Source: Parcubacteria group bacterium GW2011_GWC1_45_14 (GTDB taxonomy: Bacteria; Patescibacteriota; Minisyncoccia; Moranbacterales; GWC2-37-73). From it: a DNA stretch of 64,000 nt. Below are positions 15,103-52,158 of this stretch, piece by piece. Made by a program: the position numbers and the translations under genes. Numbering within the stretch: the first letter of the stretch is position 1; each line of letters opens with the position of its first letter. Below the pieces are notes generated by a model. The model ran no database searches. It had not been told where the DNA came from and saw nothing but the letters and a program-made list of their open reading frames with translations. Where the stretch lies: NCBI GenBank assembly GCA_001001345.1, contig LCKI01000001.1:339-64338 (forward strand), in the 5' to 3' direction.

Positions 15103-15308
15103 CTGCGCGTTTTTCCGTGGCTGAGCGCGGTGGGATTTGTCTTGAAAAAAACATAGGAGTGCGGTACACTGGGCGTATGCCCGGATGGGTGGTTTTTGAG
15201 GTTACAATAGGAATTGTTGAGAGTTTTTGAAGGTAGTATAGGATAACAATAACTTCGTTATAAATAATTCCTTCGGGGGGAAACCTGAGACGGAATTTTG
15301 AAAAATAT

Positions 15309-16577
15309 ATGGATTATTTCGTCATCAATGGGGGCAAAAAACTTGCCGGTGAAATCGAAGTGCGCGGAAGCAAAAATGCGGCCGCCCCGATAATCGCGGC
15401 GACGCTCCTGACCAAGGAGCCTTGCGTGCTTTCCAATGTCCCGCTTATTGAGGATATCTTCAAGCTTCTTGAAATCATCAAGAGCATGGGAGCGGAGGTG
15501 GAATGGGTCGGGGAAAGGAAAGTGAAGATCACCGCCAAGGATTTGGACGTGGAGAAGATAGATTACGAACTGGTCAAGAAAATCAGATTGTCCGTGCTCC
15601 TGCTGGGATCGCTTTCGGCGCGTTTTGACAAATTCGAGCTGGCTAATCCTGGCGGATGCAAGATCGGCAAAAGGCCATTGGGAACACATTTCCATGCGCT
15701 GGAGGAATTGGGAGTCAAAGTTACTCAGGATGAGAAGTTTTATCTGGTGGATGCGAGCAAAAGGAAGGATGCGCAGATAATCTTGAGGGAGTTTTCCGTG
15801 ACTGCGACCGAGATTGCTATGATGCTCGCTGCCGGAATGCCGGGAAAGACGATAATCAAGATCGCTGCAGCCGAACCGCACGTGGAGGATTTGGGGAAAT
15901 TCCTGATCAGGATGGGCGCGAAGATAAAAGGCCTTGGGACGCACACTTTGGAAATCGAAGGAACCAGGAAACTTGACGGTGCAAAACACGAAATAATTCC
16001 GGATGCCAATGAGGCGGCGACGTTCCTGATCATGGGAGTCGCGACCAAGAGTCCGATTATCGTCAAGAACGCGCGCGAAGAACATTTGGATTTGGTGTTG
16101 GAGAAACTGCGCGAGATGGGAGCGGAATTTTTGGTTAGGAAAAATGAGATCCAAGTAATTCCGGCAAAAAAAATCAAGGCTCTTTCTAAAATCGATGCTA
16201 GGATTTATCCCGGAATTCCGACCGACGATCAAGCGCTGTTCGGCGTTTTGGCGACGCAGGCTGAAGGTGAGACTTTGGTATTCGATACGCTTTTCGAAGG
16301 AAGGTTTAATTATGTGACGGAGATTGAAAAGATGGGAGCGACCGTGAAAGTTCTCAACCCGCACCAGGCCGTCTTTACGGGACCGACGCCGCTTCGAGGG
16401 GAAACGATCACGAGCTATGACCTGCGTGCCGGAGCCTCGCTGATTTTGGCCGCGCTTTTGGCGAAAGGACAATCCGTGATCAAGGAGATTTACCAAGTCG
16501 ATCGCGGTTATGAAAAAATAGAGGAGAGGTTGCAAAAATTGGGAGCGGACATCCAAAGGGTGCCGGAAGGGGAATAG
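15309..16577 (+). CDS. murA: UDP-N-acetylglucosamine 1-carboxyvinyltransferase
   Basis: GGKKLAGEIEVRGSKNAA N-terminus; EPSP-synthase fold length. Confidence 0.9.
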   Translation: MDYFVINGGKKLAGEIEVRGSKNAAAPIIAATLLTKEPCVLSNVPLIEDIFKLLEIIKSMGAEVEWVGERKVKITAKDLDVEKIDYELVKKIRLSVLLLGSLSARFDKFELANPGGCKIGKRPLGTHFHALEELGVKVTQDEKFYLVDASKRKDAQIILREFSVTATEIAMMLAAGMPGKTIIKIAAAEPHVEDLGKFLIRMGAKIKGLGTHTLEIEGTRKLDGAKHEIIPDANEAATFLIMGVATKSPIIVKNAREEHLDLVLEKLREMGAEFLVRKNEIQVIPAKKIKALSKIDARIYPGIPTDDQALFGVLATQAEGETLVFDTLFEGRFNYVTEIEKMGATVKVLNPHQAVFTGPTPLRGETITSYDLRAGASLILAALLAKGQSVIKEIYQVDRGYEKIEERLQKLGADIQRVPEGE

Positions 16578-16641
16578 AAAAAAATTTCTAATTTCCATTT
16601 TTTAATTTTTAATCAAATCTAAATTTTAAATTTTCAATGGG

Positions 16642-22621: not shown

Positions 22622-24448
22622 TTATTTGATATCCGTGACGTGGTAGATAAGAATGGAGGTTCCTACCTGGGCGACGGGGCTGTATTTTTTTAGCCAGCTG
22701 TAATTTTCTTCGACGCTTTTCCTTTCGTCGTGGAGACTTTCTTGGATAAAAAGTACTGAAATGGCGTACCAGCCATTTTCGACAGGCCTTCTGGCGTCCC
22801 ACCAGGAAATCACCTTGTCTTCTCCCAGGTAGTGATTGACGTCGCCTCCGCCGAAATAGTTCACCCTGATTTTGTCTATCCGGGGATTTTCTTCAAGGTA
22901 TGTCTTCAGTCGCTTAATGTCTTGCCCCCAGTCCGCGTTGGAATCGGTGACGTATTGGTAGCCACTGCTTGGTCCGCCGGCGACTTGATTGAAATAGGAA
23001 ATATAATACGGGTAGGATGCCACAGCTTCGATAATCAGCCAGAAGACCATTGTCACGATCATCACGTTGATGAAATTTTTCTTGTGATGGTCTTTTCTCC
23101 TGTAGGAGAAAATCTTTTTGGAGAGCAGAATATAGGCGAACGGGAATATAGGGAATAGATGACGGAAGCCGATATTGAGATTTCCAGTGATGCTGACGAA
23201 GGAATAAATGATTATGAATGAGAGCAGGGCAGTTTCCGTTATCCTGCTATGCAGAAACTCTCTCAGTAAGGTGATATTTTCCCTGGCTGATCTTTTGAAT
23301 GAGTGGGTTAGCGAGAAGAAAGATTCCTTAGCAACGACGGCTAAAGTAAAGAAAAGCAAAACGAGTATCGGCAGGGGCTCTTTCATGAGAAATACCAACG
23401 GGAAGTAGGATGCTTTGGCATCATTGGAAACTTCTCCCATGAAATAAGTTACGTTTCCGCCGGCGACCCGCTGGAAGACGCGGGCTACTCCGAAGAGATA
23501 TTCCCCCAGGGGCTGCAGGATCTCATGCTCATTGATTGCGAAGAGGGCTTTTCTGGTATAGATAGTTTTGATATTGGAATCATTGGCTTTGAAATAGTGA
23601 TTTATGCCGTCGTTCATGACTTCCACTGGCATGCCGGACGTGTTGAAAGCGTAAAGGGCCCAGACCGCGGCGATGGAGACGGCGAAAACCAAAAATCCCT
23701 TAAATACGTATTCGAAGAATTCGCCGATTTTTTTCCTTTCAGGCTTGGTTTTTTTGATAAGGGGATAGCCGACAACTAGCAGGAAAAAAACGGGGAAGGC
23801 GATCACTGAGGAGAATTTTGCCAATTGCAAAAGTCCCAAGAAGAGTCCGGCCAGAAAAACGTTTTTCCAGGAAGGTTGCTTGATGAACTTGAGGAAATAG
23901 TAAAAGGAGAAAGTGATGAAAGCCGCGATTCCCAAATCCGTCGTCACGAGATGGTTGTGTCCCAGGACATTGGGATTGAAGGCGTAAAGAGCCAAGGCTA
24001 AGAGGGCGGCCGGAATAGAGGCGATTTCCTTCGTCCATCGGAAGATGAAAAGTCCGAGAGCCAGGGCAAGCAGGATAAACGGCACACGGGACCAGAAGAT
24101 TACCCGGTCTGGATCGTTGCCTGAACCGTAGAGGAATTTCCTGCCGGCATTCCATTGGTTGTCCGCCACGTTATCGGTCGTCCAGGAGCTGTGGGTCGTG
24201 TCGAAATTGAGATCCAGGAACTGCAAGGGTAGACCTGCTAAATCTTTGAGTAGCGGAGGATGCTCCGGATTGAGGCGCATGTCATGCTCCGAAAGATATG
24301 AATATGACGCCGGGATATGCGCGACTTCGTCATATGTCGCTCCGTCGTTTTTCGCATTGAGCAGGGAAACTGCCAGGACGAAGGACATCATTGTCAAAAC
24401 TAATTTTTTAGAGTGTCTCTTGAGGAAGTAGTCGATTTTTTGCAGCAT
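22622..24448 (-). CDS. GT-C family membrane glycosyltransferase (PMT/ArnT-like, GT39/GT83)
   Basis: multi-TM, YDEVAH acidic loop near N-terminus. Confidence 0.7.
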   Translation of the reverse strand: MLQKIDYFLKRHSKKLVLTMMSFVLAVSLLNAKNDGATYDEVAHIPASYSYLSEHDMRLNPEHPPLLKDLAGLPLQFLDLNFDTTHSSWTTDNVADNQWNAGRKFLYGSGNDPDRVIFWSRVPFILLALALGLFIFRWTKEIASIPAALLALALYAFNPNVLGHNHLVTTDLGIAAFITFSFYYFLKFIKQPSWKNVFLAGLFLGLLQLAKFSSVIAFPVFFLLVVGYPLIKKTKPERKKIGEFFEYVFKGFLVFAVSIAAVWALYAFNTSGMPVEVMNDGINHYFKANDSNIKTIYTRKALFAINEHEILQPLGEYLFGVARVFQRVAGGNVTYFMGEVSNDAKASYFPLVFLMKEPLPILVLLFFTLAVVAKESFFSLTHSFKRSARENITLLREFLHSRITETALLSFIIIYSFVSITGNLNIGFRHLFPIFPFAYILLSKKIFSYRRKDHHKKNFINVMIVTMVFWLIIEAVASYPYYISYFNQVAGGPSSGYQYVTDSNADWGQDIKRLKTYLEENPRIDKIRVNYFGGGDVNHYLGEDKVISWWDARRPVENGWYAISVLFIQESLHDERKSVEENYSWLKKYSPVAQVGTSILIYHVTDIK

Positions 24449-24604: not shown

Positions 24605-26170
24605 TTATTTTTTGATTTCCCAAAATTTGTCACCCGGAAATTCCTCATGTTCAATAACCTTGTATTGGGGTGAAATTGAGCGGACTTTCGTTATGATATC
24701 ATCTTCTTTGTCATACATGACAACGACGAAATCGCCTTTTGGATCAAGCGAAAGGAAATCTTCCTTGTAGAGATAGGAGATATTAGGCATTTGGGGATTG
24801 AGGTATTTTATCGGAATCCTTTCCATATTGCCGGAAATTACGTATTTTTGAGTTTCGACTGGGATGGTCTGGAGATGATAGGCGATGTCCTTGAGATTCG
24901 CATTGAAGGATGAATGCTGCTTCGGGTTATTTTGGAAAAAAACGAAATATTTGAGGGTGTTGAAGAGTCCGATGAAAATTAGCGCGCCGACTAAAATAGA
25001 AAAGATTGTTATTTTCATCGAAGAATAGGTGTGCTTGGAAAGTTTTCCCAAAAGCCAAAGGAAAGGGATGGTTGCCAAGATCATCACGACCGGCAAGGTG
25101 CCGATAGCGCGCAGGGCATGAGGGAGTCCTTCAGCAGTCAGGAATTCGGGAGCGAGCATGGCGAAAAACCAAGCAAGAAGGAAAAAGTATAGGTAGAGTT
25201 TTTCATCATGTACGTCATGTTTGAATCTGAGCCAGAGCAGGTGCAGAGCCTTGGAGATGACATAGATTATTCCGGTAAGGAAAGCGATTCCCATGACGGG
25301 GTCCAAGATCGGATAGGGAGGGTAGTTGTGACGCCAATTTTGGTCTCCCCAGAAGTTATATTTGACCAGGCTCAGGCCGAAACTTCGCAGTCCCGTCTGG
25401 ATGAGGCTCCCTTCGTTCATTTCCGGGGAGAAGATGGAAACGGAAGCGGAGCGCGACTCGAGATATTCCGGGTGGTTATAAAACTCATACACCATCGGCG
25501 AGAGCGAGATGAAGACGGCGACGGAAAAAATCAGGATTTGTTTCCAGAAACTTCGCAGGAAATGTTTCTGGGTAATGAGCATGAAGACGAAAAGGGCGGC
25601 GATGATCGCCGGAGCGATGCGGAAGGCGATGTAGGTGTGAAAGCCTAGGCCGAAAATGAGTCCGGAGATTATGAAGTCGGAATATTTCTTGGTGCGGAAT
25701 CCTTTGAGCAGGAAATAGGAAGAGAAGGTCATTATTAGGGGGACCATGATGGCGCGGAAACCGATGCGGGAGAAGTTTATCGCCCAATAGGAAAAGGTCG
25801 TCAGATAGGCGCTGATAAGCCCTGCCCGCTGGCTGCGGAAGATTTCTTTGGAAAGCAGATATACGCCGAGAACCGTGAGTGTGCCGAAGATTATCGACGC
25901 GAGTTTGAGCGCCATGACGGTGCTGCCGAAGAATTTGATGCTCAGCGCTTGGATGTTTATGAAAAGGCCTTCGCGCCCGTTGTTATCGATGTAGAAAAGT
26001 TGGTAATTTCCGGAGCTGTTGGCGTCCTGCGCGTTGATGCCATTGACCGCTTCATCCGGATATATTCCGGAAGGCAGATCTTCGATGCCGGTGAAACGGA
26101 GGAAGAACGCGCAGACGACGATGGCGAAGAGCAGGACGTAGTTAAGAATTTTTTTTTGTTTCGGTTTCAT
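24605..26170 (-). CDS. GT-C family membrane glycosyltransferase (ArnT/PMT-like)
   Basis: multi-TM, PDEAVNG loop motif. Confidence 0.7.
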   Translation of the reverse strand: MKPKQKKILNYVLLFAIVVCAFFLRFTGIEDLPSGIYPDEAVNGINAQDANSSGNYQLFYIDNNGREGLFINIQALSIKFFGSTVMALKLASIIFGTLTVLGVYLLSKEIFRSQRAGLISAYLTTFSYWAINFSRIGFRAIMVPLIMTFSSYFLLKGFRTKKYSDFIISGLIFGLGFHTYIAFRIAPAIIAALFVFMLITQKHFLRSFWKQILIFSVAVFISLSPMVYEFYNHPEYLESRSASVSIFSPEMNEGSLIQTGLRSFGLSLVKYNFWGDQNWRHNYPPYPILDPVMGIAFLTGIIYVISKALHLLWLRFKHDVHDEKLYLYFFLLAWFFAMLAPEFLTAEGLPHALRAIGTLPVVMILATIPFLWLLGKLSKHTYSSMKITIFSILVGALIFIGLFNTLKYFVFFQNNPKQHSSFNANLKDIAYHLQTIPVETQKYVISGNMERIPIKYLNPQMPNISYLYKEDFLSLDPKGDFVVVMYDKEDDIITKVRSISPQYKVIEHEEFPGDKFWEIKK

Positions 26171-26304
26171 TTTGTTTTATGTTATGTAAACATGCTTTTT
26201 ATTTGGTTTCATTGTAGCATTTTTTTCGTTTTCCCAACAGAAGCTTCGGTGTGAAAAAATCACGTAGGAATTCGGATTATTTTGTGGTATAATTTTGAAG
26301 AAGA

Positions 26305-29300
26305 ATGCGTCTGAAATTTTTTCGATTAGAAATAAAAATGGCCCAGGAAAACAAAGACATAACAATAATGAACGTGGAAACCGAAAAGATGAGGGCGCTT
26401 AACGCTTTTATTGAAGACGTGTTGAATCGGAAAATAAGATTGTTGAAGAGCGGCCAAGTTGACGGTGCGACCGTCACGTTCGAGGATTTCAAAATCAAAG
26501 GCTCCGATATCCCTCAGAACAAGCTACCGAACAACAGCGAGGACACGATTGAGCTGGAAAAACGTATCCAGAAATCTAATAGGATATTGCGCAAGGCTTA
26601 TGAGAGCATTTTGGAAGCCGGAATAAGCCAAGCAATGGAAAGGGAAATAGAGGAAATTTTCGAGTCCATTTTTATGGATGGGGCGCTTTTTGGAAAGTTG
26701 TACAAAGCTGACCAGGAGCTTATTAGAAAGGCGAATGAAGAGGGGATAACGGGAGATTTGGAAGATCTTTTCATAAAATCCGTCGCCAAGGAAGGGATCG
26801 GGAAAATGGGAAGGGAGGAATTGAAAAAACTCATCAAGGATTTTTGCACGGACAGGGGAAATCTTGAAAAGATAGTTACCAAAGATGAAGATAAAGACAA
26901 GATGATCGATGCGATAGTAAATCTTACTGGTCTTTTTGGTAGTTCCAGGGGAGAAACCGGGGAGAATAAACAGGAGCCGACAAAAAACGAAATATTGGAG
27001 AAATATCTCAGCTACCAGGATACTGATTTGCTGGATGAAAGAAAAAAATCCATGCTTGAGTCGACGATGAAAGGGGTGAGCGCGCAAAAATATGCCGAGG
27101 CATTATTGGAGATTTCTCGGAATGGGGATATGGCGGAGGTAGAAAGATTGGTAAAAGGCATGAAAGCAGAGTGTCTGAATGCGTTAATTGCTTTAAAAAT
27201 TGAAAAAACAAAGTACGCCGACAGTGATAGTTGGGCGATGTGGGATATAGCCAAACAGTATCACTTTTACACCCACCCGAGCGAAAATGACCCAAGATAC
27301 TTATTGGCGAATCCATTGGAGTCCGAGGAAAAAATTGAGGAAATCATAGACAGGCACATAGGATGGGAGCTGTATGCTTATTTCAGTAAAAATGGGGTTG
27401 ATGTGGTGAATATCGTAGGCGATGGCGAAAAAAAGAAAAAGATCCTGGATATTCTGACAGGAGAAAAGAATGCTTCAGGGGGGATAAGTTCGTTTAATTT
27501 AGCCGTGCTTGGAAAGTTATTAAAATCTGAAATTCCAGGATTTAAGCATGAAAAGATGCTGAGTGTTGACGGTGGAAATCCGGATGGAAAAAAAGACAAG
27601 GATGCTTCCGACGGCAAGGAGGAGAAAAAAACAAAGGAGGAGGTTCCATTGGATAAAAATTCCCTGTTGGAAAAAGGCAAGACCGCATCTGCGGAACTGG
27701 ACAAGCTCTGGAAGAAGCTCCCTGATTATCCCAGGATGGAGCCGGAGTTCGAATCCGTTTTCCGAATACTTGATATGGAAGGTGAAAATTACTTCGATTA
27801 TCTTTGCAAAAAAGACGAACAATCCTCCGATTGGAAAACTCTGGATGAAGAGGGAAAGAATAAAAAGATCAATAACAGGGTCGAGCACGTCGAAACCATA
27901 AGGGGTATGGTCAAGAAAAAGTTGCTGGAGCTCGGCATAGAATTGGAGGACCCTAAGAAAAAAGAGAAGGGGGCTGATAAAAATGAGGGATCGGCCGAGG
28001 AGCGGAAAGATGATGGCAAGAAAGCTGAAGATATGAGCGAAGAGGTTACTGAGAGGGTGAAGATCTTAAAGAAGGAAGTGGAAATCGCCAGAAAGGAGTA
28101 TTTGGAAACGGACTATAGGAAAAAGAACTCCCTGAGAAGAATCTATGCGTTTTTGGGAGCTAGTTTCAAGAACAAAGAAGAAAAGACCCTGGAAAAAGAT
28201 CTGGATATCGCATGGCATAGGGCCCATTATGATAACAAGCTTTTCGATCTGCAAAAGGTGATGCTTGACGATGCGAAAGAGAGAGGCGTGTCCGACAAGG
28301 AACTTGCTGAGATAGGCATATATTTCAGAATGGAGCAGAAGATAAACATGGCTGAGGTCCATGATCAGGTGAAATCCGAGCAACAAGACAAGAAGTTGTC
28401 GGGATTCATTGAGAAGAAAGCGCTTGAATTAACCGATTTTTACAAGACTATGCCGCTGGGCAAGAAGCTCTTGATTGCCGGAGTGTTTTTGGGTGGCAGT
28501 GTCGTGACCGCTGGAGTCGGTGGAGCTGCTGCTGGGGCTTTTATTACAACAGCTACCGGAAGAAAAATGCTGATGGGCATGTTCGCCGGAGTGGGAGTCA
28601 CTCTCGGACTTGAAGCGAGGGGAAAAAAGAGCGAGAAAGCCGCAATCGAGAAAGAGAAGGCGGGGTTTTTGGAATCCATTAAAAACATGAATGAGGAAGA
28701 AAAATATAACTTCATTGCGGGCAATATAAAGAACATATCGATCAAAGACGGGGAATTAGCTATCAATAAGATCAAAAATCAAGATATCCGCCAGAAGATT
28801 GCCGGTGTGTCCGCGGGATTTGCAGCCACCGTCCTTCCCGGCATTGTCAGTTCTTATGCCGGGGAAGCGTATGCCGGGATACTTGAAAAAATCTCCCCAG
28901 AAAGCGTTCCGGCTCCGCCAGTTATGTCCGAGGTGGTCCTTGAGGTCAAAAAAGGCAGCAGTTTCGAGGGAACCATCATAAAGCATCTTTCGGATCCCAA
29001 TTCTGAGATATACAAACATCATCCCGAGCTTAAAAATGTCGATCCCGGAGTCATCGCCCATAGATTAGCTTTGGATTTCGCGCACGATCATGGGACCGGG
29101 CTTCCGGATTTGGTAAATCCTGATGACAGGATAAGCATAAAATTCGATCCGGCCGCTTTGAAGATAAATGGAACGCTTGAGGATTCCGTCAGGATAGATA
29201 TTGAGAGCCATTTGGAGCCCGGAAAGACCTCTGAGATTACTAAGGCGGTTCCTGCTGAAATTCCGAAAGTCGTTCCGGCTACGGAGGTGCCGGCTTCCCC

Positions 29301-29907
29301 GGAGACCCCTATTTCGGAAGAAAAAAATATTATTAGTAAGAATAATTCTCGCTTGGAGAGCGTTATGCAGGAGCCGCAAGGAGCGAATACTGAAACTCCC
29401 GCCGCGGAAAATCCGGTAGAGCAACAACCTGATGAAAATTTAGGGACTTCTTCAGGGGAGCGGCAGGTTTCCACGGAAAGGGAAGCGACGCAGGAAAACA
29501 ATGCCCCGGCTTTGGCAGTGGAAAAAAACTTCACAGAGAACAATTCCTTTGGAACGAAGAATGGAAAAATAGGCTTCAGCTATGACAAAGACGGAAAGAT
29601 AACCGCGATCCTGCAGGAGGTTTTAATTTCCGGACTGGAGGGCAATGAAAACCTGACTCCTGATTTCAGGAAAATTGTAATGGAAACCGGTAAATTGAAA
29701 AATACGTCCATGGCTATGAATATAGCAAATATGGGAAGCAGGGAGGTTTCCAATTATATGGAGGCATTCGAAGAACTCAAAAAAGGCGGGCACGACAAAG
29801 AGGCCAGGGCCGTGCTGGATAGGATTTATGGCATAGTTCTGGGAACGGAAAAGCATCTTGGCGTTAAGATTTTCGACAGATCAAAATTGCCTTTAATGGA
29901 AAAATAA
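26305..29907 (+). CDS. Giant (1200 aa) charged/coiled-coil hypothetical protein with central Gly/Ala-rich TM hairpin (aa ~715-760)
   Basis: long ORF, K/E-rich, no recognisable domain; hydrophobic segment LLIAGVFLGGSVVTAGVGGAAAGAFITTATGRKMLMGMFAGVGVTLGL. Confidence 0.6.
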   Translation: MRLKFFRLEIKMAQENKDITIMNVETEKMRALNAFIEDVLNRKIRLLKSGQVDGATVTFEDFKIKGSDIPQNKLPNNSEDTIELEKRIQKSNRILRKAYESILEAGISQAMEREIEEIFESIFMDGALFGKLYKADQELIRKANEEGITGDLEDLFIKSVAKEGIGKMGREELKKLIKDFCTDRGNLEKIVTKDEDKDKMIDAIVNLTGLFGSSRGETGENKQEPTKNEILEKYLSYQDTDLLDERKKSMLESTMKGVSAQKYAEALLEISRNGDMAEVERLVKGMKAECLNALIALKIEKTKYADSDSWAMWDIAKQYHFYTHPSENDPRYLLANPLESEEKIEEIIDRHIGWELYAYFSKNGVDVVNIVGDGEKKKKILDILTGEKNASGGISSFNLAVLGKLLKSEIPGFKHEKMLSVDGGNPDGKKDKDASDGKEEKKTKEEVPLDKNSLLEKGKTASAELDKLWKKLPDYPRMEPEFESVFRILDMEGENYFDYLCKKDEQSSDWKTLDEEGKNKKINNRVEHVETIRGMVKKKLLELGIELEDPKKKEKGADKNEGSAEERKDDGKKAEDMSEEVTERVKILKKEVEIARKEYLETDYRKKNSLRRIYAFLGASFKNKEEKTLEKDLDIAWHRAHYDNKLFDLQKVMLDDAKERGVSDKELAEIGIYFRMEQKINMAEVHDQVKSEQQDKKLSGFIEKKALELTDFYKTMPLGKKLLIAGVFLGGSVVTAGVGGAAAGAFITTATGRKMLMGMFAGVGVTLGLEARGKKSEKAAIEKEKAGFLESIKNMNEEEKYNFIAGNIKNISIKDGELAINKIKNQDIRQKIAGVSAGFAATVLPGIVSSYAGEAYAGILEKISPESVPAPPVMSEVVLEVKKGSSFEGTIIKHLSDPNSEIYKHHPELKNVDPGVIAHRLALDFAHDHGTGLPDLVNPDDRISIKFDPAALKINGTLEDSVRIDIESHLEPGKTSEITKAVPAEIPKVVPATEVPASPETPISEEKNIISKNNSRLESVMQEPQGANTETPAAENPVEQQPDENLGTSSGERQVSTEREATQENNAPALAVEKNFTENNSFGTKNGKIGFSYDKDGKITAILQEVLISGLEGNENLTPDFRKIVMETGKLKNTSMAMNIANMGSREVSNYMEAFEELKKGGHDKEARAVLDRIYGIVLGTEKHLGVKIFDRSKLPLMEK

Positions 29908-29929
29908 ACACTAAAGTATCATAAAAAAT

Positions 29930-30241
29930 ATGGACGAGTCAAAAAATACGGCGTCCGAATCCCTGGATCAGCTCGTGAGGGAATTGGGAATCGACACTTT
30001 GCCCGAAGACAAGCGCAATGATTTACTGATCAAGATGACCGAGGTGCTGCTGAAGCGCATTTTTCTCGAGACGATGGAAAAGCTCGGGGAGCAGGGAAGG
30101 GATGAATATGAGGAAATCATGCAAAAAAACCCCCAACCGGAGGAACTGGAGGCTTTTTTTGCCGAAAAGATAAAAGATTACGAAGACATGGTCCAGGGAA
30201 TTGTGGCTGATTTCAAAAAGGAAATGCTTACTATTAAATAG
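29930..30241 (+). CDS. Small acidic helical hypothetical protein (103 aa)
   Basis: ORF in operon context between giant protein and ATPase. Confidence 0.45.
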   Translation: MDESKNTASESLDQLVRELGIDTLPEDKRNDLLIKMTEVLLKRIFLETMEKLGEQGRDEYEEIMQKNPQPEELEAFFAEKIKDYEDMVQGIVADFKKEMLTIK

Positions 30242-30305
30242 ATGGCAAGGAAGCGACAATTTGTATATAATGGTCATATAACAAATAACGGATTTTAGAA
30301 ATATT

Positions 30306-30755
30306 ATGGAACCGATAAAATCGAACTTGGAGCCGCTCGAGGAGAAGGATATCAACTTGGAACGGAAGCTCAAAAAAGAGGATGTGGGCGGATTGGGATT
30401 CGAAAGGGATGAAGATGTTTTCAGAGTTGAAAAAGAGGTTGCTAGTGAAAAGAGCGGCGCGGAGAAGGACGCCGCTTATTCCCAGATAATGTCCAAGTTG
30501 GGGGATGATACGCCCGGTAGCGGCATTTCCAATGATGATGTTTCCGGTGATGCCAAGGATGTCTCCCAAAGAACGGATGCTGAATCGCAGATAAGCCATC
30601 TCGTTGACATAGCAATGGTCAAGGGCGTCGTCCACGCCGTGAAGGTGGCTCAGCATATCGAGGATAATTACGTCCTGGATACGTTCCATGACAAGCTTAT
30701 GGCGGAGGATTTGCATGATGCGCTTGTCCATAAAGGATTACTGAAGAATATTTAG
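30306..30755 (+). CDS. Small acidic hypothetical protein (149 aa)
   Basis: operon context. Confidence 0.45.
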   Translation: MEPIKSNLEPLEEKDINLERKLKKEDVGGLGFERDEDVFRVEKEVASEKSGAEKDAAYSQIMSKLGDDTPGSGISNDDVSGDAKDVSQRTDAESQISHLVDIAMVKGVVHAVKVAQHIEDNYVLDTFHDKLMAEDLHDALVHKGLLKNI

Positions 30756-30788
30756 ACCGGGTTTAAAAAACAAAAATAAAAACAACAT

Positions 30789-33266
30789 ATGCCAACTTTC
30801 GATCTTAATCTGGTGCTGATGCCTCTTACCGTGGCTTTGGCCACCCTCTCTTTTTTGACGGGAGGATATTTGGTTTTGCGGAGTTTTTTTAATTTTCGCG
30901 CCCAAATCAACAGGTCCGTCAACATGGATCTCGAGATAATAAAGATCGCCAAGGTGTTTAAAAACAAGCAAGAACAGGAAGACCCGGAATCTTGGAAGGA
31001 TGAGATAGGGGCCATGGAACAGCTTTTGGGAACGCTTTCCAATATGAAGGACAAGAGCTCTTTTTTTGGCAGATTTCTCTATGGCGAGCCCCATGTAACC
31101 TTGGAATTGGCTCAACCCGCCAACAGCGAGGAGATCCTTTTCTATATGGCTATCCCTAAGAAATTCAGGGAAAGCATAGAGAAACAAGTACACAGTTATT
31201 TCCCGGAGGCTTCGATAGAGAAAGTTTCGGATTACACTATTTTTTCCCCGGGAAGCTTCACTGCCGCCGCCGTTTTGGGACTGAAAAACACTCACGCCTT
31301 GCCGGTTACGACATATGAAGATATGAACGTCGATCCTTTGAATGAGATTTCCAATGCTTTGAGTAAGTTGCATGATTTCGAGGAGGGAGCGGTCATTCAG
31401 TTGGTTCTTCGTCCAGCTGGGACTGCCTGGCGCAAGTTGGGTAGGGATATAGCTCATCGGATGCAACAAGGAAAGAGACTTAAGGACGCCCATGAGGAGT
31501 CATTTATTCTTAATGCTGGAAAAGAAACTATAAAGATATTGCAAAACAGGCCTACTGATTCCGGCTATGGAAACGAAGGGTCGGTCCAACTCACTCCAGA
31601 GGAACAGGAGTTAATTAAGGACATTGAGAGAAAAGCGAATAAAGTGGGATTCAATGTTAATATACGCATCTTGTCTTCCGCTAAGACCCAGCAGCGGGCT
31701 GATGACATCCTTTCCCATCTGGAAAACTCCTTCTCTCAATTTGAAAACGCGGAAGCTAACCATTTTGTTATAAAAACAAGAACCAAAAGCAAAAAAGTTG
31801 CATTCGATTATATATTTCGGAATTTTGATGAGGACAATTCGATGATCCTCAGTACGGAGGAAATAGCCAGTATCTTCCATTTCCCGATTTCCACCACTGA
31901 AACACCGAAGATAAAGTGGCTCAAGGCTGGGGCTGCTCCGCCTCCCCTTAATATACCCAAGGAAGGTTTGCTTTTGGGATACAATGATTATCGTGGGGTG
32001 AAAACAGATATAAGGATGACCGACAGCGATCGAAGGAGACATTTATATACCATAGGTCAGACCGGCGCAGGTAAATCAAATTTCCTGCAGGAGCTGGCCA
32101 AACAGGATGCGAGAAACGGGAAGGGTTTCTGCTTTATTGATCCGCACGGTGACGCCATTGAGGACATCCTCACGGCAATCCCCAAGGAGAGGGCGGAGGA
32201 TGTTATCGTGTTCGATCCTTCGGATATGGAGAGGCCGTTCGGCCTTAATATGTTGGAATATGATCCGGCCAATCCGCAGCAGAAAACTTTCGTGATCAAT
32301 GAGATGATCGGCATCTTTGACCAATTGTATGATTTGAAATCGACAGGAGGGCCGATGTTTGAGCAATATGTCAGGAATGCCATGCTCCTTATCATGGAGG
32401 ATCCAGATTCGGGTTCCACTTTGATGGAAATTTCTAAGGTTTTGGCTGACGAAGACTTCAGGCGGATGAAGCTTTCCAAGTGCGCCAATCCGGTTGTGAG
32501 GGATTTCTGGGTAAAGGAGGCGGAGAAAGCCGGAGGGGAAGCGGCACTGGCCAACATGGTCCCTTATATTACCTCCAAACTTACCACTTTTATTTCGAAC
32601 GACATGATGCGTCCGATAATAGCGCAGCAGAAAAGCACGCTCAATTTCCGCGAAATCATGGATGATGGCAAAATACTGCTCGTGAAGCTTTCCAAAGGAA
32701 AGATCGGGGAAATAAACGCGCACTTGCTGGGCATGGTCATCGTGGGAAAGATCCTAATGAACGCGCTGGCCAGGGTTGATATGGCGGAAGACGAGCGAAA
32801 GGATTTCTATCTTTATCTGGATGAATTCCAGAATGTCACCACGGAATCAATCTCCCAGATCCTTTCCGAAGCGAGGAAATACCGCCTGTGCCTCGTAATC
32901 GCGCACCAATTCATAGGACAACTTAGCGAGGACATATCCAAGGCGGTTTTTGGTAACGTGGGCTCGATGTGCGCATTCCGCGTGGGCCCGGAAGACGGGG
33001 AATTTTTGGAGAAACAGTTCGAGCCCATATTCAAAGCCAATGATCTGGTCAATGTCGACAATTACAATTGTTTCACCCGCATGCTTATAAACAACGAGCT
33101 TTCTAAGCCCTTTAGCATGAAGACGTTCCCTCCGACAGCCGGGGATCAGAAGGTTGCAAATTATCTCAAGGAGCTTTCCAGGTTGAAATACGGAAGGGAT
33201 GCCAAAATCGTGAATAGGGAAATAATCGAAAGGACCAAGCTCGCTGAAAAGATGAGAGACGCGTAG
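30789..33266 (+). CDS. Membrane-anchored FtsK/HerA-superfamily ATPase resembling type IV coupling protein (VirD4/TraG/TraD-like)
   Basis: two N-terminal TM helices; Walker A GQTGAGKSN; FIDPHGD; Walker B YLYLDEFQN; ARKYRLCLVIAHQFIGQL (RKYG...Q..QL TraG-D_C-like). Confidence 0.6.
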   Translation: MPTFDLNLVLMPLTVALATLSFLTGGYLVLRSFFNFRAQINRSVNMDLEIIKIAKVFKNKQEQEDPESWKDEIGAMEQLLGTLSNMKDKSSFFGRFLYGEPHVTLELAQPANSEEILFYMAIPKKFRESIEKQVHSYFPEASIEKVSDYTIFSPGSFTAAAVLGLKNTHALPVTTYEDMNVDPLNEISNALSKLHDFEEGAVIQLVLRPAGTAWRKLGRDIAHRMQQGKRLKDAHEESFILNAGKETIKILQNRPTDSGYGNEGSVQLTPEEQELIKDIERKANKVGFNVNIRILSSAKTQQRADDILSHLENSFSQFENAEANHFVIKTRTKSKKVAFDYIFRNFDEDNSMILSTEEIASIFHFPISTTETPKIKWLKAGAAPPPLNIPKEGLLLGYNDYRGVKTDIRMTDSDRRRHLYTIGQTGAGKSNFLQELAKQDARNGKGFCFIDPHGDAIEDILTAIPKERAEDVIVFDPSDMERPFGLNMLEYDPANPQQKTFVINEMIGIFDQLYDLKSTGGPMFEQYVRNAMLLIMEDPDSGSTLMEISKVLADEDFRRMKLSKCANPVVRDFWVKEAEKAGGEAALANMVPYITSKLTTFISNDMMRPIIAQQKSTLNFREIMDDGKILLVKLSKGKIGEINAHLLGMVIVGKILMNALARVDMAEDERKDFYLYLDEFQNVTTESISQILSEARKYRLCLVIAHQFIGQLSEDISKAVFGNVGSMCAFRVGPEDGEFLEKQFEPIFKANDLVNVDNYNCFTRMLINNELSKPFSMKTFPPTAGDQKVANYLKELSRLKYGRDAKIVNREIIERTKLAEKMRDA

Positions 33267-33395: not shown

Positions 33396-35723
33396 CTATA
33401 AGTCCATGGCATCTATTTCTCCAGGCAATATCAGGTAAGCCTTTCTCCTTTCTTCATCCACGGAGAATCCTTCGGCGTTCGCGATGGCTTCGTGGTGGTA
33501 TTGCTTGATTAGTTTGCCTTCCTTGTCGAATTGGATGAGTCTGGAGTTGGGTATATCCAAGACATATATGCCGTTCATGGTTATATCAGTGACGATATTC
33601 TCAAAGTTTATCGGGGTATGGGAATTTTCCAGTGAAAAGCCCGTATCCTTTCCTCTGAAAAGTTGCTTGATGCCATTTCCGGTGGCTAAATATACGTTGT
33701 CGTCAATAGTCATGTCCTTAATTGAGGATAGGTCGATTTCCTCCTTAAGCCAATCCGTTTTTTCTCCGAATCCGCCTTCCGCTCTCGGATAACGATATAT
33801 TTGGTCGTTTTTCGAGTCTAGCAGGTATACGTAGGTCAGGTAGGTGGATGCGAAATCGATCTGAGAATTTTCAGGGAGTGTTATCGTATTATCTTTCAGC
33901 TCCAAGGACACGGGGCTGAAGGAGATGACCTTGTCCTTATCAGTCAGAACAAGAATAAGGTTTAGGTCGCTCATGTAAGTGGCAAGTTTTCCTGGGCCAT
34001 ATTCTTGTGGCCAGGAGAAATCCCGAGCTTCGCTTCCATTTAGTACCGTTATTTTCCTCTCATCTACCGCATAAAGGGATCCTTCCAACGGAAAGGCGTC
34101 GATAACGCCGGAAATTTCACGTATTTTTTCTATTTGCTCAACGAAGGAGATGTTTTTTTCTTGCGAATATTTTTCATTGTCGGATATTTGCGTCATCGGA
34201 AGGGTTTCTATGGAAGTCGCTGGCTCTTTTTCAAAATTTATTTTAGAGAGCGCAAGTGGGACCGTCACGATGAGCAGCAGCGTCGAAAAAATAAAAAGCT
34301 TCTGTTTGAGGGTCATTGATGGCAAGAGTTTTTTTATTTTGGAGAAGCTCGGGAGAAGCTCGGAGAAACTGAAAGCATTCCTGTTGTCTTCTTGGCGGGA
34401 TATTTCCGCCTTGGCCAGGTTTATTTTTTCAAACAAACTCGACTCCGAAGCAATTTCTTCCGGGTTTTCCTTCGGAGCTGATTTTCTTTTGGGAGTAATT
34501 TCAGTCCGGGAAATTTTTTGTTCGGCTTGGAAAGAGTCCTCGCTTTCTCGGTATATTTCTTCCAAGGCCTCTTTTTTCTCCCTTCTTGATCGGTCAAATT
34601 CTTGCTTCTTTTTATCTACCGCCTCCTTTAACACGTCGAATTTTCCAGCATAATCGTATTCCGATATCCTGGATGAAATCCGTTTGGTTTTTTTCCAAAG
34701 AGATGATGACTGCTTGGCAAAAAATTCTTTCGCTCCATATGACAGGTCATATAACATCTCCTTGGCCATTTGCGTCCGTTCATGCATGGGACTGCTCGTC
34801 TCCTCATTTCCTTCATCCCCTTGGATATAGATGTGGCCGGTCTTCTTGTCCGTGTATTCTTTTTCGGCTTCCGCCAGATACTCCTCTATGGAAATATCTT
34901 CCGATTCTTCCATTGGAGAGGATGAAGACTTTCGGTTTTTTTTCGCGAAAGCCTTCTCGCTGAAAACGTTCAGATCTCTGGATGCATGAGTTGCTGGTTT
35001 TTCTCTTTTGGGGATGATCTTCCGGGGTTCGTCTATGTCTACCACTATGGTTCCGGCCAAATCCAATTCGTTGGTCAGCGCGGTCCTGAGGAATTGGGCG
35101 AATTTGTCCTTGTCGAACCGCTCGATGTTTTTTTCCAGATCTGCAACCGAAAGTATGTTGAAAAGATCGTCGGAAGTGATTATGAGTTTGTCGCTTTTTT
35201 CCAGTTTCCCGCTGGAAACGTTGATGAAGGTCTTCAGAGGGTGCGGCTCGGGCAATTCAGGAGCCAAGCCTTCGGTTATATCGGTAAGTGAGATGTTTCT
35301 GGAAAGCAATATCTTGGCATTTCCGGTCACGGTGAAGTGGATGTTGTTTTTTTCCAAAACACAGATAGCGGAATCAAGTTTCCCGAGCCAGTTTATATTC
35401 CCATGTTTGACCAACTCAGAGAGCGCTAAATTGACCTTGTGTAAAGCGGAATCGAAGCTTTCTTGGACCGGACGCTTGGGATTGAGATAATATTCTTTTT
35501 TGAGGACGGAGTTGAGGAAGTTGACCACGTAGGCTGAGTCCTCGCTGTACTCCCTTATTTCGAAAAATCCGACCAGTAGGCCCAGGGGCTGCTGGGTTAT
35601 GTTTTCAGGATGGTACTGAAAAATTTCAATATAAGGCTTAAGATTGGCGTTATTGACGACTAAAATGGGGGAAATTTCCTTTTCCATATTCATTGTATTC
35701 TTACTGCCAAGGAATCCTGGCAA
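33396..35723 (-). CDS. Hypothetical bitopic membrane protein: cytoplasmic N-terminal domain, one TM, large C-terminal extracytoplasmic domain
   Basis: 775-aa ORF, TM LFIFSTLLLIVTVPLAL mid-protein. Confidence 0.55.
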   Translation of the reverse strand: MPGFLGSKNTMNMEKEISPILVVNNANLKPYIEIFQYHPENITQQPLGLLVGFFEIREYSEDSAYVVNFLNSVLKKEYYLNPKRPVQESFDSALHKVNLALSELVKHGNINWLGKLDSAICVLEKNNIHFTVTGNAKILLSRNISLTDITEGLAPELPEPHPLKTFINVSSGKLEKSDKLIITSDDLFNILSVADLEKNIERFDKDKFAQFLRTALTNELDLAGTIVVDIDEPRKIIPKREKPATHASRDLNVFSEKAFAKKNRKSSSSPMEESEDISIEEYLAEAEKEYTDKKTGHIYIQGDEGNEETSSPMHERTQMAKEMLYDLSYGAKEFFAKQSSSLWKKTKRISSRISEYDYAGKFDVLKEAVDKKKQEFDRSRREKKEALEEIYRESEDSFQAEQKISRTEITPKRKSAPKENPEEIASESSLFEKINLAKAEISRQEDNRNAFSFSELLPSFSKIKKLLPSMTLKQKLFIFSTLLLIVTVPLALSKINFEKEPATSIETLPMTQISDNEKYSQEKNISFVEQIEKIREISGVIDAFPLEGSLYAVDERKITVLNGSEARDFSWPQEYGPGKLATYMSDLNLILVLTDKDKVISFSPVSLELKDNTITLPENSQIDFASTYLTYVYLLDSKNDQIYRYPRAEGGFGEKTDWLKEEIDLSSIKDMTIDDNVYLATGNGIKQLFRGKDTGFSLENSHTPINFENIVTDITMNGIYVLDIPNSRLIQFDKEGKLIKQYHHEAIANAEGFSVDEERRKAYLILPGEIDAMDL

Positions 35724-35962: not shown

Positions 35963-36568
35963 ATGTCTGAAATTCTAGAGACGCTATTCGGTTCCAAGGC
36001 CAAAACCAGGATATTGAGATTTTTTTTACTTAATCCCGATGTGGAATATTCGATTCTTGATATAGCGCAAAAAAACATGTTGACAGGGCCCCAGGTAAGG
36101 AAGGAGCTGAACGCTTTGAAAAAAATCAAATTTGTCACTGAAAAAAGCCGCAAAAACCAAAGACACTTCATCCTGAACAAGAATTTTCATTTCTATCCCG
36201 AGCTCAAGGGATTGATCGCCAAGTCCAATATCTATCCTCAGTGCAGGAGCCTGGGCAAAATAAAAGCGGTAGGGGATGTGAAACTTGCTCTGATAAGCGG
36301 AATCTTCCTTAACCATCAAAAGAGCAAGGTTGACATGATCTTGGTCATCAACAATGTCAGCAGGGGGAAGTTGAAGAATGTGATGAATAATCTCGAAGCG
36401 GAAGTGGGCAAGGAAGTCAGCTTCGTGCTGATGAACAGCGAAGAGTTCAAATACCGGCTCGACATGCTAGACAGGTTCTTGATGGAGTTCTTGGAGGGTC
36501 CTTATGATGAGATAGTGAACAAGATTCCCGGGCTCAAGCGGATCGTGATGGGTCTTAAGAAATACTGA
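35963..36568 (+). CDS. Putative winged-helix transcriptional regulator-like protein
   Basis: N-terminal KTRILRFFLLNPDVEYSILDIAQ wHTH-like. Confidence 0.45.
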   Translation: MSEILETLFGSKAKTRILRFFLLNPDVEYSILDIAQKNMLTGPQVRKELNALKKIKFVTEKSRKNQRHFILNKNFHFYPELKGLIAKSNIYPQCRSLGKIKAVGDVKLALISGIFLNHQKSKVDMILVINNVSRGKLKNVMNNLEAEVGKEVSFVLMNSEEFKYRLDMLDRFLMEFLEGPYDEIVNKIPGLKRIVMGLKKY

Positions 36569-50526: not shown

Positions 50527-50598
50527 GCCACCCTAGCTCAATGGTAGAGCTACTGTTTTGTAAACAGTGGGTTATCGGTTCAAATCCGGTGGGTGGCT
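50527..50598 (+). tRNA. tRNA-Thr(UGU)
   Basis: cloverleaf: acceptor GCCACCC/GGGTGGC, anticodon loop TTTGTAA, T-loop TTCAAAT. Confidence 0.7.
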
Positions 50599-50682: not shown

Positions 50683-50765
50683 GGGTAGTTGGCGGAGTGG
50701 TCAATCGCAGCTGACTGTAAATCAGCCGACTTCGGTCTTCGGGGGTTCGAATCCCTCACTGCCCA
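50683..50765 (+). tRNA. tRNA-Tyr(GUA) with long variable arm
   Basis: acceptor GGGTAGT/ACTGCCC, anticodon loop CTGTAAA, T-loop GGTTCGAATCC. Confidence 0.8.
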
Positions 50766-52087: not shown

Positions 52088-52158
52088 GCGGGCATCGTAT
52101 AGTGGTAATACGGCGGTCTCCAAAACCGTTAACGTGGGTTCGATTCCTACTGCCCGTG
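52088..52158 (+). tRNA. tRNA-Trp(CCA)
   Basis: anticodon loop CTCCAAA, T-loop GGGTTCGATTCC, acceptor GCGGGCA/TGCCCGT. Confidence 0.75.

Follow-up and report, generated by a model that had tools for sequence, protein, structure and literature searches.

A DUF8128-type coupling protein homologue of a Moranbacteria-lineage genome, its conserved small partner and a variable giant neighbour

Type IV coupling proteins (T4CPs) are substrate receptors of type IV secretion systems (T4SSs), and the T4CP gene of a conjugative cluster lies beside that for the relaxase, its substrate. A homologue of these proteins, an 825-amino-acid (aa) ATPase, is encoded in a 64,000-nucleotide stretch of DNA (positions 339 to 64,338 of contig LCKI01000001.1), here called the window. 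The window is housekeeping chromosome of a metagenome-assembled genome from an ultra-small bacterium of the Moranbacteria lineage of the candidate phyla radiation (CPR), or Patescibacteria. The ATPase gene is the last of four co-directional genes; those before it encode a giant lysine- and glutamate-rich (K/E-rich) protein and two small acidic proteins, one of family DUF5663 and one of 149 aa, termed p149.

The orphan status of T4CP homologues in Patescibacteria is already published. For 3,035 Patescibacteria genomes, Quinonero-Coronel et al. (2025) list 5,713 VirD4-type homologues, spread over 2,918 of them, and virB4 in 2,417 (about 80%); the T4CP genes often lie apart from virB4, relaxases are almost absent, and a possible exaptation of the T4CP homologues is put forward (PMC12102498). 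The T4SS of these bacteria is essential to epibiotic life and is not accompanied by a relaxase (PMC12102498; PMC12857230). The ATPase of the window represents the same phenomenon, being of a kind that is near-universal in CPR genomes and seldom near virB4. The examined passages of that study (PMC12102498) hold no description of a DUF8128 or VirB4 N-terminal-domain-like region, of small partners or of adjacent giant proteins, and no paper found by a literature search mentions DUF5663 or DUF8128. What appears to be new is that DUF8128 has a VirB4-like fold, that a small partner is conserved, and that hypervariable giant membrane proteins recur beside the ATPase.

The 825-aa protein is tentatively regarded here as a chromosomally fixed orphan T4CP of a DUF8128 subtype, which would receive substrates and act as the motor of a T4SS whose genes lie in another part of the genome.

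The ATPase and its T4CP family

The protein is 100% identical to a database protein of Parcubacteria group bacterium GW2011_GWC1_45_14. It passes the Pfam cut-offs of TrwB_AAD_bind (30.7 versus 20.5 bits) and TraG-D_C (24.8 versus 22), is marginal for DUF87 (23.8 versus 23.2) and stays below the cut-off of T4SS-DNA_transf (19.0 versus 20.1); NCBIfam T4CP equivalogs all score far under their cut-offs, e.g. 30 versus 366. Its relatives bear PF26449 (DUF8128) and PF10412, the PF26449 assignment being taken from precomputed Pfam matches on the identical database protein and all relatives. In a sequence search of the PDB, TrwB and DotL are the sole matches, with similarity confined to the motif regions (E 1e-6, profile).

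An earlier note, made from the sequence of this DNA alone, had quoted a Walker A motif, DPHGD, a Walker B motif and an ARKYR/AHQ block, and had found the ATPase most like T4CPs. All of the motifs are at the places given there (Table 1), with ARKYR at aa 695-699 and AHQFIGQL at aa 705-712, and the likeness to T4CPs is borne out by the Pfam and PDB matches. The GQTGAGKS (423-430) and DEF (678-680) sequences are invariant among the relatives, and both regions align to TrwB. As the motifs are intact, the protein is presumably an active membrane-bound ATPase. Two other statements of the earlier note need revision. Instead of two N-terminal transmembrane (TM) helices there is one hydrophobic segment, modelled as a single helix, and the supposed 400-aa spacer is in fact a conserved folded domain, DUF8128. 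Basic residues following the TM segment suggest, by the positive-inside rule, that the bulk of the protein is cytoplasmic.

The AlphaFold model of the protein (pLDDT 71.6) begins with a long helix; an alpha/beta domain (about 48-362) and a RecA-like domain (394-780) come next, and helices make up the C-terminus. The RecA-like domain carries an exclusively helical insertion between strands 472-475 and 629-633, a T4CP hallmark. The DUF8128 domain is confidently folded (pLDDT 83.6) and resembles the N-terminal domain of VirB4. Since the DUF8128 profile has no match among PDB sequences, the link to the VirB4 N-terminal domain is one of structure only. The protein thus shows the two-domain fold of VirB4, a VirB4-type N-domain followed by a C-terminal ATPase. 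By likeness to TrwB and VirB4, it may assemble as a hexamer, forming a ring at the membrane.

The earlier note had advised testing which motor clade the ATPase groups with; by fold comparison it groups with VirB4, TrwB and DotL. The comparison figures, which carry no label, are 29.2 for the VirB4 C-terminal domain, 26.5 for DptH, 25.8 for TrwB, 25.0 for HerA, 21.8 for DotL, 16.7 for EccC and 15.6 for FtsK. The features of other motor families were looked for in the protein and not found: an FtsK_SpoIIIE motor as best match, a polytopic N-terminus and a gamma domain for FtsK/SpoIIIE; a HAS barrel joined to a HerA ATPase, with HerA also missing from the structural matches of the N-domain; and three tandem FtsK-like ATPase domains with WXG100 substrates for EccC/EssC of the type VII secretion system.

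Relatives are present in true conjugative systems. A tblastn search of annotated plasmids with the ATPase gave 278 records, and 38 of these match over at least 80% of the protein, N-domain included, at 25-29% identity. The hosts are Streptomyces, Embleya, Bacillus, Priestia, Shouchella, Clostridium, haloarchaea and Sulfolobus, and full-length relatives lie inside conjugative T4SS clusters of Bacillota, Actinomycetota and haloarchaea. A Shouchella clausii plasmid has, in order, the DUF8128-type ATPase, Replic_Relax, conjugal transfer proteins and VirB4 (AAA_10, E 1e-115). An Embleya plasmid carries PrgI (VirB3-like) and a VirB4-like ATPase, then the T4CP of DUF8128 type, and after it Replic_Relax and an NlpC/P60 hydrolase. 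On a Natrinema plasmid, a pilin and a conjugal transfer protein are followed by DUF8128 as a 382-aa gene of its own, adjoining the T4CP. The N-termini of plasmid relatives match the DUF8128 profile with hhalign probabilities of 98.5%, 96.9% and 99.4%. Because full-length relatives adjoin VirB4 and Replic_Relax genes in genuine T4SS clusters, the DUF8128-type ATPases are a real T4CP family; and because the family coexists with true VirB4 and holds the T4CP slot beside a relaxase-like gene, it is a T4CP subtype and not VirB4. A scan of viral contigs gave 13 weak matches, mostly to the ATPase domain, and thus no sign of phage origin.

The closest described systems can now be compared with the window protein. 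The DUF8128 T4CPs of monoderm and archaeal elements resembling mating-pair formation class FATA (MPF-FATA), such as WP_248290882.1 and WP_331738717.1, likewise join DUF8128 to a VirD4-like ATPase; they adjoin VirB4 and Replic_Relax, whereas the window gene neighbours p149, DUF5663 and the giant. TrwB of R388, VirD4 and DotL have in common with the window protein an N-terminal anchor and a RecA-like nucleotide-binding domain with an inserted all-alpha domain. The canonical T4CPs, however, have two TM helices instead of one, and lack the VirB4-like domain of about 320 aa between anchor and nucleotide-binding domain. From VirB4/TrwK the window protein differs by its N-terminal TM helix and by having no Pfam match to the VirB4 sequence families AAA_10 and CagE_TrbE_VirB.

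The ATPase family comprises 5,634 clusters (50% identity) at E<1e-30, and two near-invariant peptides are common to no fewer than 573 GTDB species representatives. Named members, all with PF26449 and PF10412, are from Moranbacteria, Kerfeldbacteria, Doudnabacteria, Portnoybacteria, Saccharibacteria and others. Variant forms also occur. Tandem paralogues of about 830 aa and about 950-1060 aa are found in three loci (L085, L090 and L092). Split forms, with a DUF8128 gene of about 430-535 aa and an ATPase gene of about 520-620 aa, occur in loci L087, L093-L095, L106, L107, L145, L150 and L153 and also on a haloarchaeal conjugative plasmid (L188 7737-8885), which marks DUF8128 as an autonomous module. 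Extensions of 600-1200 aa follow the ATPase domain in proteins P0181, P0185, P0186, P0188, P0190-P0192, P0198 and P0201; in the scanned relatives of 1200-2000 aa (P0181, P0185, P0186, P0178 and P0212) the extensions have no Pfam match.

The genes in front of the ATPase

The four genes are at the positions proposed in the earlier note, and since all four open reading frames (ORFs) have homologues in public data they are genuine genes. They are separated by gaps of 22, 64 and 33 bp. An extended -10-like element, TGGTATAAT, ends 11 nt upstream of ATG 26305. As this element lies so close to the first ATG, and as the database entry has 1189 aa, the true start of the giant is probably ATG 26338. A consensus scan for promoters and terminators did no better than on shuffled sequence, with sites in the divergent region no more numerous than in the shuffles, and the -10 assignment is therefore read from the sequence only; a convincing internal terminator was not seen.

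The description of the two small proteins as acidic was correct, with predicted isoelectric points of 4.46 and 4.73. The 103-aa protein belongs to DUF5663 (PF18908; E 5e-7, 30.6 bits versus a cut-off of 23.7, profile positions 1-83 of 84), and its orthologues are assigned to the same family. The second, p149, has a disordered N-terminal half and a conserved C-terminal helical domain of about 60 aa, whose aligned sequences share the motif DAESxIxxLVDLAxxKGVxHAVKVAxxLxDxYxLDxFHD. No Pfam, NCBIfam or PADLOC match was found for p149, a PDB search with its profile gave chance-level matches only, and it shows no relation to Replic_Relax proteins.

Conservation of the neighbourhood was followed through 84 loci of Moranbacteria, whose ATPases share 65-86% identity with that of the window. 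The order giant/acidic/acidic/ATPase, for which the earlier note had advised a comparison of related genomes, is kept in most of them; the usual arrangement is [FtsQ, PMT_2, PMT_2]/giant-like/DUF5663/p149/ATPase/convergent p775/p201/RmuC, where p775 and p201 are the 775-aa and 201-aa neighbours treated below. The p149 gene lies directly 5′ of the ATPase gene in 82 of the 84 loci, and in 70 a DUF5663 gene is flanked by the giant-like gene on one side and by p149 on the other (BLASTP). The whole FtsQ-to-RmuC region is collinear in most of the loci, so that adjacency alone is weak evidence for a functional link.

Beyond Moranbacteria, p149 is again directly 5′ of the ATPase in Portnoybacteria (L167, E 4e-24) and in two more lineages (L168, E 4e-22; L172, hhalign 96.4%), and in one of these its stop codon overlaps the ATPase start. 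In other clades this slot is filled by small proteins of different types, mostly acidic and ending in an amphipathic helix, whose genes often overlap the ATPase start; at least two such types exist besides p149. Hidden Markov models (HMMs) of the 103-aa protein, p149, the giant core, p775 and p201 detect nothing in 80 distant metagenome loci, where the partners are other small-protein types. The comparison of protein L170_129 with DUF5663 gave no more than a weak signal. As a small partner is kept beyond Moranbacteria while the giant and DUF5663 are not, the invariant unit is the small partner plus the ATPase, and the giant and DUF5663 are additions at the level of lineages.

The giant had been called a K/E-rich protein without recognisable domain and with a Gly/Ala-rich membrane hairpin. 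Both features are confirmed; there is no Pfam, NCBIfam or PADLOC match, and the hairpin is at aa 716-770. A word-indexed search finds only four relatives, and the family becomes visible only by an iterated HMM of the core on the fetched loci, which places a member directly 5′ of the DUF5663 gene in 67 of the 84 Moranbacteria loci. Within Moranbacteria the family members range from 313 to 1581 aa, their N- and C-terminal extensions are hypervariable, and few columns of the core are more than 80% conserved. In the closest relative the giant is 48% identical, over aa ~552-999 only, compared with 84% for the ATPase and 87% for p201. The giant is thus fast-evolving. The earlier note had also asked whether it persists in relatives, and it does so in most of the Moranbacteria loci while missing in several other CPR lineages.

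A second arrangement is found in Doudnabacteria, Saccharibacteria and locus L170, where a giant of at least 1070 to 1387 aa is followed by an acidic protein of about 110 aa and the ATPase. In L169 the giant has at least 1070 aa and the small protein 109 aa, and a 141-aa protein comes after the ATPase. These giants are mutually related and also carry a Gly/Ala-rich hydrophobic segment; no homology to the Moranbacteria giant core is detectable (hhalign E 0.84).

Table 1. Features of the window, with positions counted from its first nucleotide
Feature	Position	Strand	Basis or remark
Two tandem PMT_2 (dolichyl-phosphate-mannose-type) glycosyltransferases	22622-24448; 24605-26170	-	divergent from the module
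Extended -10-like element TGGTATAAT	26286-26294	+	read from sequence; in 134-bp divergent intergenic region
Giant, K/E-rich, full ORF of 1200 aa (true start probably ATG 26338, giving 1189 aa)	26305-29907	+	ORF confirmed
Giant, conserved core, aa ~480-1006	27742-29322	+	coverage by BLAST high-scoring segment pairs and HMM envelope
Giant, hydrophobic hairpin rich in Gly/Ala (two membrane segments predicted), aa 716-770	28450-28614	+	hydropathy and sequence reading
DUF5663 protein, 103 aa, acidic, helical	29930-30241	+	Pfam PF18908
p149, 149 aa, acidic	30306-30755	+	alignment
p149, conserved C-terminal helical domain, aa 88-149	30567-30752	+	
Membrane-anchored DUF8128-type T4CP homologue, 825 aa	30789-33266	+	database identity and Pfam of relatives
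ATPase, single N-terminal TM segment, aa 7-33	30807-30887	+	hydropathy; AlphaFold helix 6-45
ATPase, DUF8128 domain, aa ~46-365, VirB4 N-terminal-domain-like fold	30924-31883	+	
ATPase, P-loop domain, aa ~392-780 (C-terminal helices at 787-824 come after it)	31962-33128	+	
ATPase, Walker A GQTGAGKSN, aa 423-431	32055-32081	+	
ATPase, DPHGD, aa 451-455	32139-32153	+	
ATPase, all-alpha insertion in ATPase domain, aa 497-625	32277-32663	+	AlphaFold model
ATPase, Walker B LDEF, aa 677-680	32817-32828	+	
Convergent 775-aa protein (p775), bitopic membrane	33396-35723	-	neighbour; module membership not shown
201-aa basic protein (p201)	35963-36568	+	
murA (EPSP_synthase, E 4e-78)	15309-16577	+	
446-aa ORF antisense to murA	15258-16598	-	
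Three tRNA genes	50527-50598; 50683-50765; 52088-52158	+	Rfam

Possible roles of the module

If the ATPase is a T4CP working at a distance from its secretion system, it would be co-transcribed with its cognate p149 and, in Moranbacteria, also with the DUF5663 protein and the fast-evolving large membrane protein. An operon is indicated by gaps of 22-64 bp, the adjacency of p149, the giant-like gene in 67 of 84 loci and the recurrence of a giant plus acidic protein elsewhere. The likeliest role, held with limited confidence, is the ancestral one, in which the ATPase would recognise substrates, probably with the small acidic proteins as its adaptors or chaperones, and feed them by ATP hydrolysis into an MPF-FATA-derived T4SS, which most Patescibacteria chromosomes encode elsewhere. 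The adjacent giant may be either a cargo or a membrane partner, and it is a candidate cargo because T4CP genes adjoin substrate genes in conjugative clusters.

Known secretion chaperones and adaptors, such as IcmS/IcmW and VirE1, are small acidic proteins. Small acidic proteins beside an ATPase together with a large candidate cargo are reminiscent of DotL-IcmS/IcmW/LvgA and of the chaperone-effector pairs of type III as well as type IV secretion. The resemblance is an analogy only; p149 and DUF5663 show neither a sequence nor a structural relationship to these adaptors.

Several observations weigh against a T4CP that serves a distant T4SS. T4SS, relaxase and pilin genes are all missing from the whole 64 kb of the window. 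The genes found in synteny with the ATPase in the different CPR classes are those for DnaX, GtrA, DnaB, CysS and FtsQ, and not those of a T4SS. The conserved core with its TM hairpin is what one would expect of a resident membrane protein more than of a cargo, and a giant does not adjoin the ATPase in L165, L167, L168, L171 and L172 (Kerfeldbacteria, Portnoybacteria and three other loci). The published survey adds that there are about two T4CP homologues per Patescibacteria genome with only 148 of the 5,713 near virB4, that the homologues occur in more genomes (2,918) than virB4 (2,417), and that in S. epibionticum the T4CP homologue is dispensable for epibiotic growth while the T4SS is essential (PMC12102498).

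These points also bear on what the earlier note had made of the locus. It had seen a possible novel membrane translocation or segregation module, distinct from a canonical T4SS, with the giant as its possible substrate. The T4CP call and the local absence of T4SS genes stand; the novelty is limited, because the ATPase belongs to a known family and its orphan state is published (PMC12102498). That it is no T4SS component cannot be read from the window, since in about 80% of Patescibacteria genomes a virB4-based T4SS is encoded at some other place. The giant as substrate is kept as a conjecture, its relatives varying between 313 and 1581 aa with only the TM-hairpin core conserved and being missing beside the ATPase in several CPR lineages.

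The main alternative, less likely on balance, is an exapted motor that has become independent of the T4SS. The DUF8128 ATPase and its small partner would then form a self-contained, phylum-wide membrane machine for a macromolecule (protein, DNA or RNA), and in Moranbacteria the giant with its TM hairpin would be the membrane partner. The published data on the family speak for such a motor: it is near-universal in CPR, commoner than virB4 and seldom linked to it, and it is dispensable where the T4SS is not (PMC12102498). On the chromosome its synteny with genes of replication and of the envelope holds across classes, lineage-specific small partners are always directly 5′ of the ATPase, and the ATPase is as strongly conserved (65-86% identity within the class) as a core function would be. 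The protein also has a VirB4-like N-domain of its own; in VirB4, as in the R388 structure, this domain docks membrane subunits. The contexts of the characterised relatives outside CPR are nevertheless all complete T4SS clusters, a channel-forming protein is not evident beside the ATPase, and for the substrate there is no experimental hint.

Rather improbable is the view that the ATPase and p149 are the unit, and that the giant and DUF5663 are mere neighbours through the collinearity of Moranbacteria chromosomes. FtsQ to RmuC is indeed collinear in most of the 84 loci, giant and DUF5663 are undetected beside the ATPase in L165, L167, L168, L171, L172 and the 80 more distant loci, and the two giant families are without detectable homology (hhalign E 0.84). 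Against this, the genes are co-directional with gaps of 22-64 bp and no convincing internal terminator; loci that have lost the usual downstream neighbours, such as L024 and L032, still hold all four genes; and a giant plus a small acidic protein is found 5′ of the ATPase in three other distant lineages.

A more elaborate proposal is quite improbable as a whole. It combines a phylum-wide, T4SS-independent motor and its acidic partner, descended from a conjugative T4CP and retaining the VirB4-like docking domain, with the import or export of macromolecules that are host-derived or host-directed, such as host nucleic acids taken up by scavenging or giant hypervariable proteins for host interaction; the adjacent giants would be its cargo or membrane partners, each specific to a lineage.

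An FtsK/SpoIIIE-like DNA pump for chromosome segregation or division is suggested by the nearby ftsQ, mreB and mur genes and those of DNA polymerase III subunits, and by a synteny, seen in the window as in other classes, with FtsQ, HolB and DnaX, Ddl and MraY-like genes; it is very unlikely, given the lack of an FtsK_SpoIIIE Pfam match and of a gamma domain, the single TM segment and the conjugative clusters to which the relatives belong. An anti-phage defence ATPase of the HerA/DptH/MADS type is scarcely credible, as the matches reflect the shared P-loop fold only, the partner genes of those systems are absent, the gene is a syntenic core gene of the whole class and not part of a variable island, and the N-domain is VirB4-like and not a HAS barrel. 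Pfam, fold comparison and PADLOC evidence led to the rejection of both as unlikely.

Should the ATPase be a coupling protein for a distant T4SS, the genes fixed beside it (the p149 family, DUF5663 and the hypervariable giants) are testable adaptor and cargo candidates, because coupling proteins are substrate receptors whose genes adjoin substrate genes. Hypervariable giants of this kind are present in Moranbacteria, in Doudnabacteria and in Saccharibacteria, which can be cultivated. A fold like the VirB4 N-terminal domain within a T4CP subtype bears on the divergence of T4SS ATPases and on the docking of coupling proteins to membrane subunits. Should the ATPase instead act independently of a T4SS, it would represent a new core machine in a very large radiation of bacteria.

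Flanking genes

The module is flanked in the window by genes for DnaE, ThrRS, MurD, MurA, MreB, GT4 glycosyltransferases, HolB, FtsQ, two PMT_2 proteins, RmuC and a GT2 glycosyltransferase; MraY-like, PrmC, RF1, S2, tRNA and aminoacyl-tRNA synthetase genes are also present. The PMT_2 pair upstream of the module is kept in most Moranbacteria loci, and a PMT_2 gene is near the ATPase in L167 and L172 as well.

The convergent p775 had been described as surface-anchored. It has no signal peptide and one central TM segment (~aa 474-497), which makes it a bitopic membrane protein, and its C-terminal region has a weak NHL/beta-propeller-like match; Pfam, NCBIfam and PADLOC gave no match. As relatives align from residue 13, its real start is probably ATG 35687 and not TTG 35723. 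It is syntenic in about 60 of the 84 Moranbacteria loci, is missing from several that have the four-gene set, and was not found in other classes. No Pfam family matches the basic protein p201, whose N-terminus is winged-helix-like; over its full length it matches PDC-M05A, a candidate phage-defence family of PADLOC (E 9e-23). In many Moranbacteria p201 keeps its place ahead of RmuC, and it has 87% identity with its counterpart in the closest relative.

In several classes a block of an approximately 200-aa protein, GtrA and DnaX recurs 3′ of the ATPase. The first is a conserved CPR protein of about 170-200 aa with the motif ...PANYASKSKLVEGD..., encoded just 3′ of the DUF8128 ATPase and followed by GtrA and DnaX. 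It is found in L166 (7465-8079), L168 (10639-11178), L170 (11329-11934), L171 (11223-11825), L172 (10718-11308), L085 (7443-7955) and L090 (2801-3334), and also directly 5′ of the second, longer ATPase paralogue; a tblastn search did not detect it in the window.

The three tRNA genes of Table 1 are the only Rfam matches in the window. The 446-aa ORF on the opposite strand spans all of murA and is most likely a non-coding shadow ORF.

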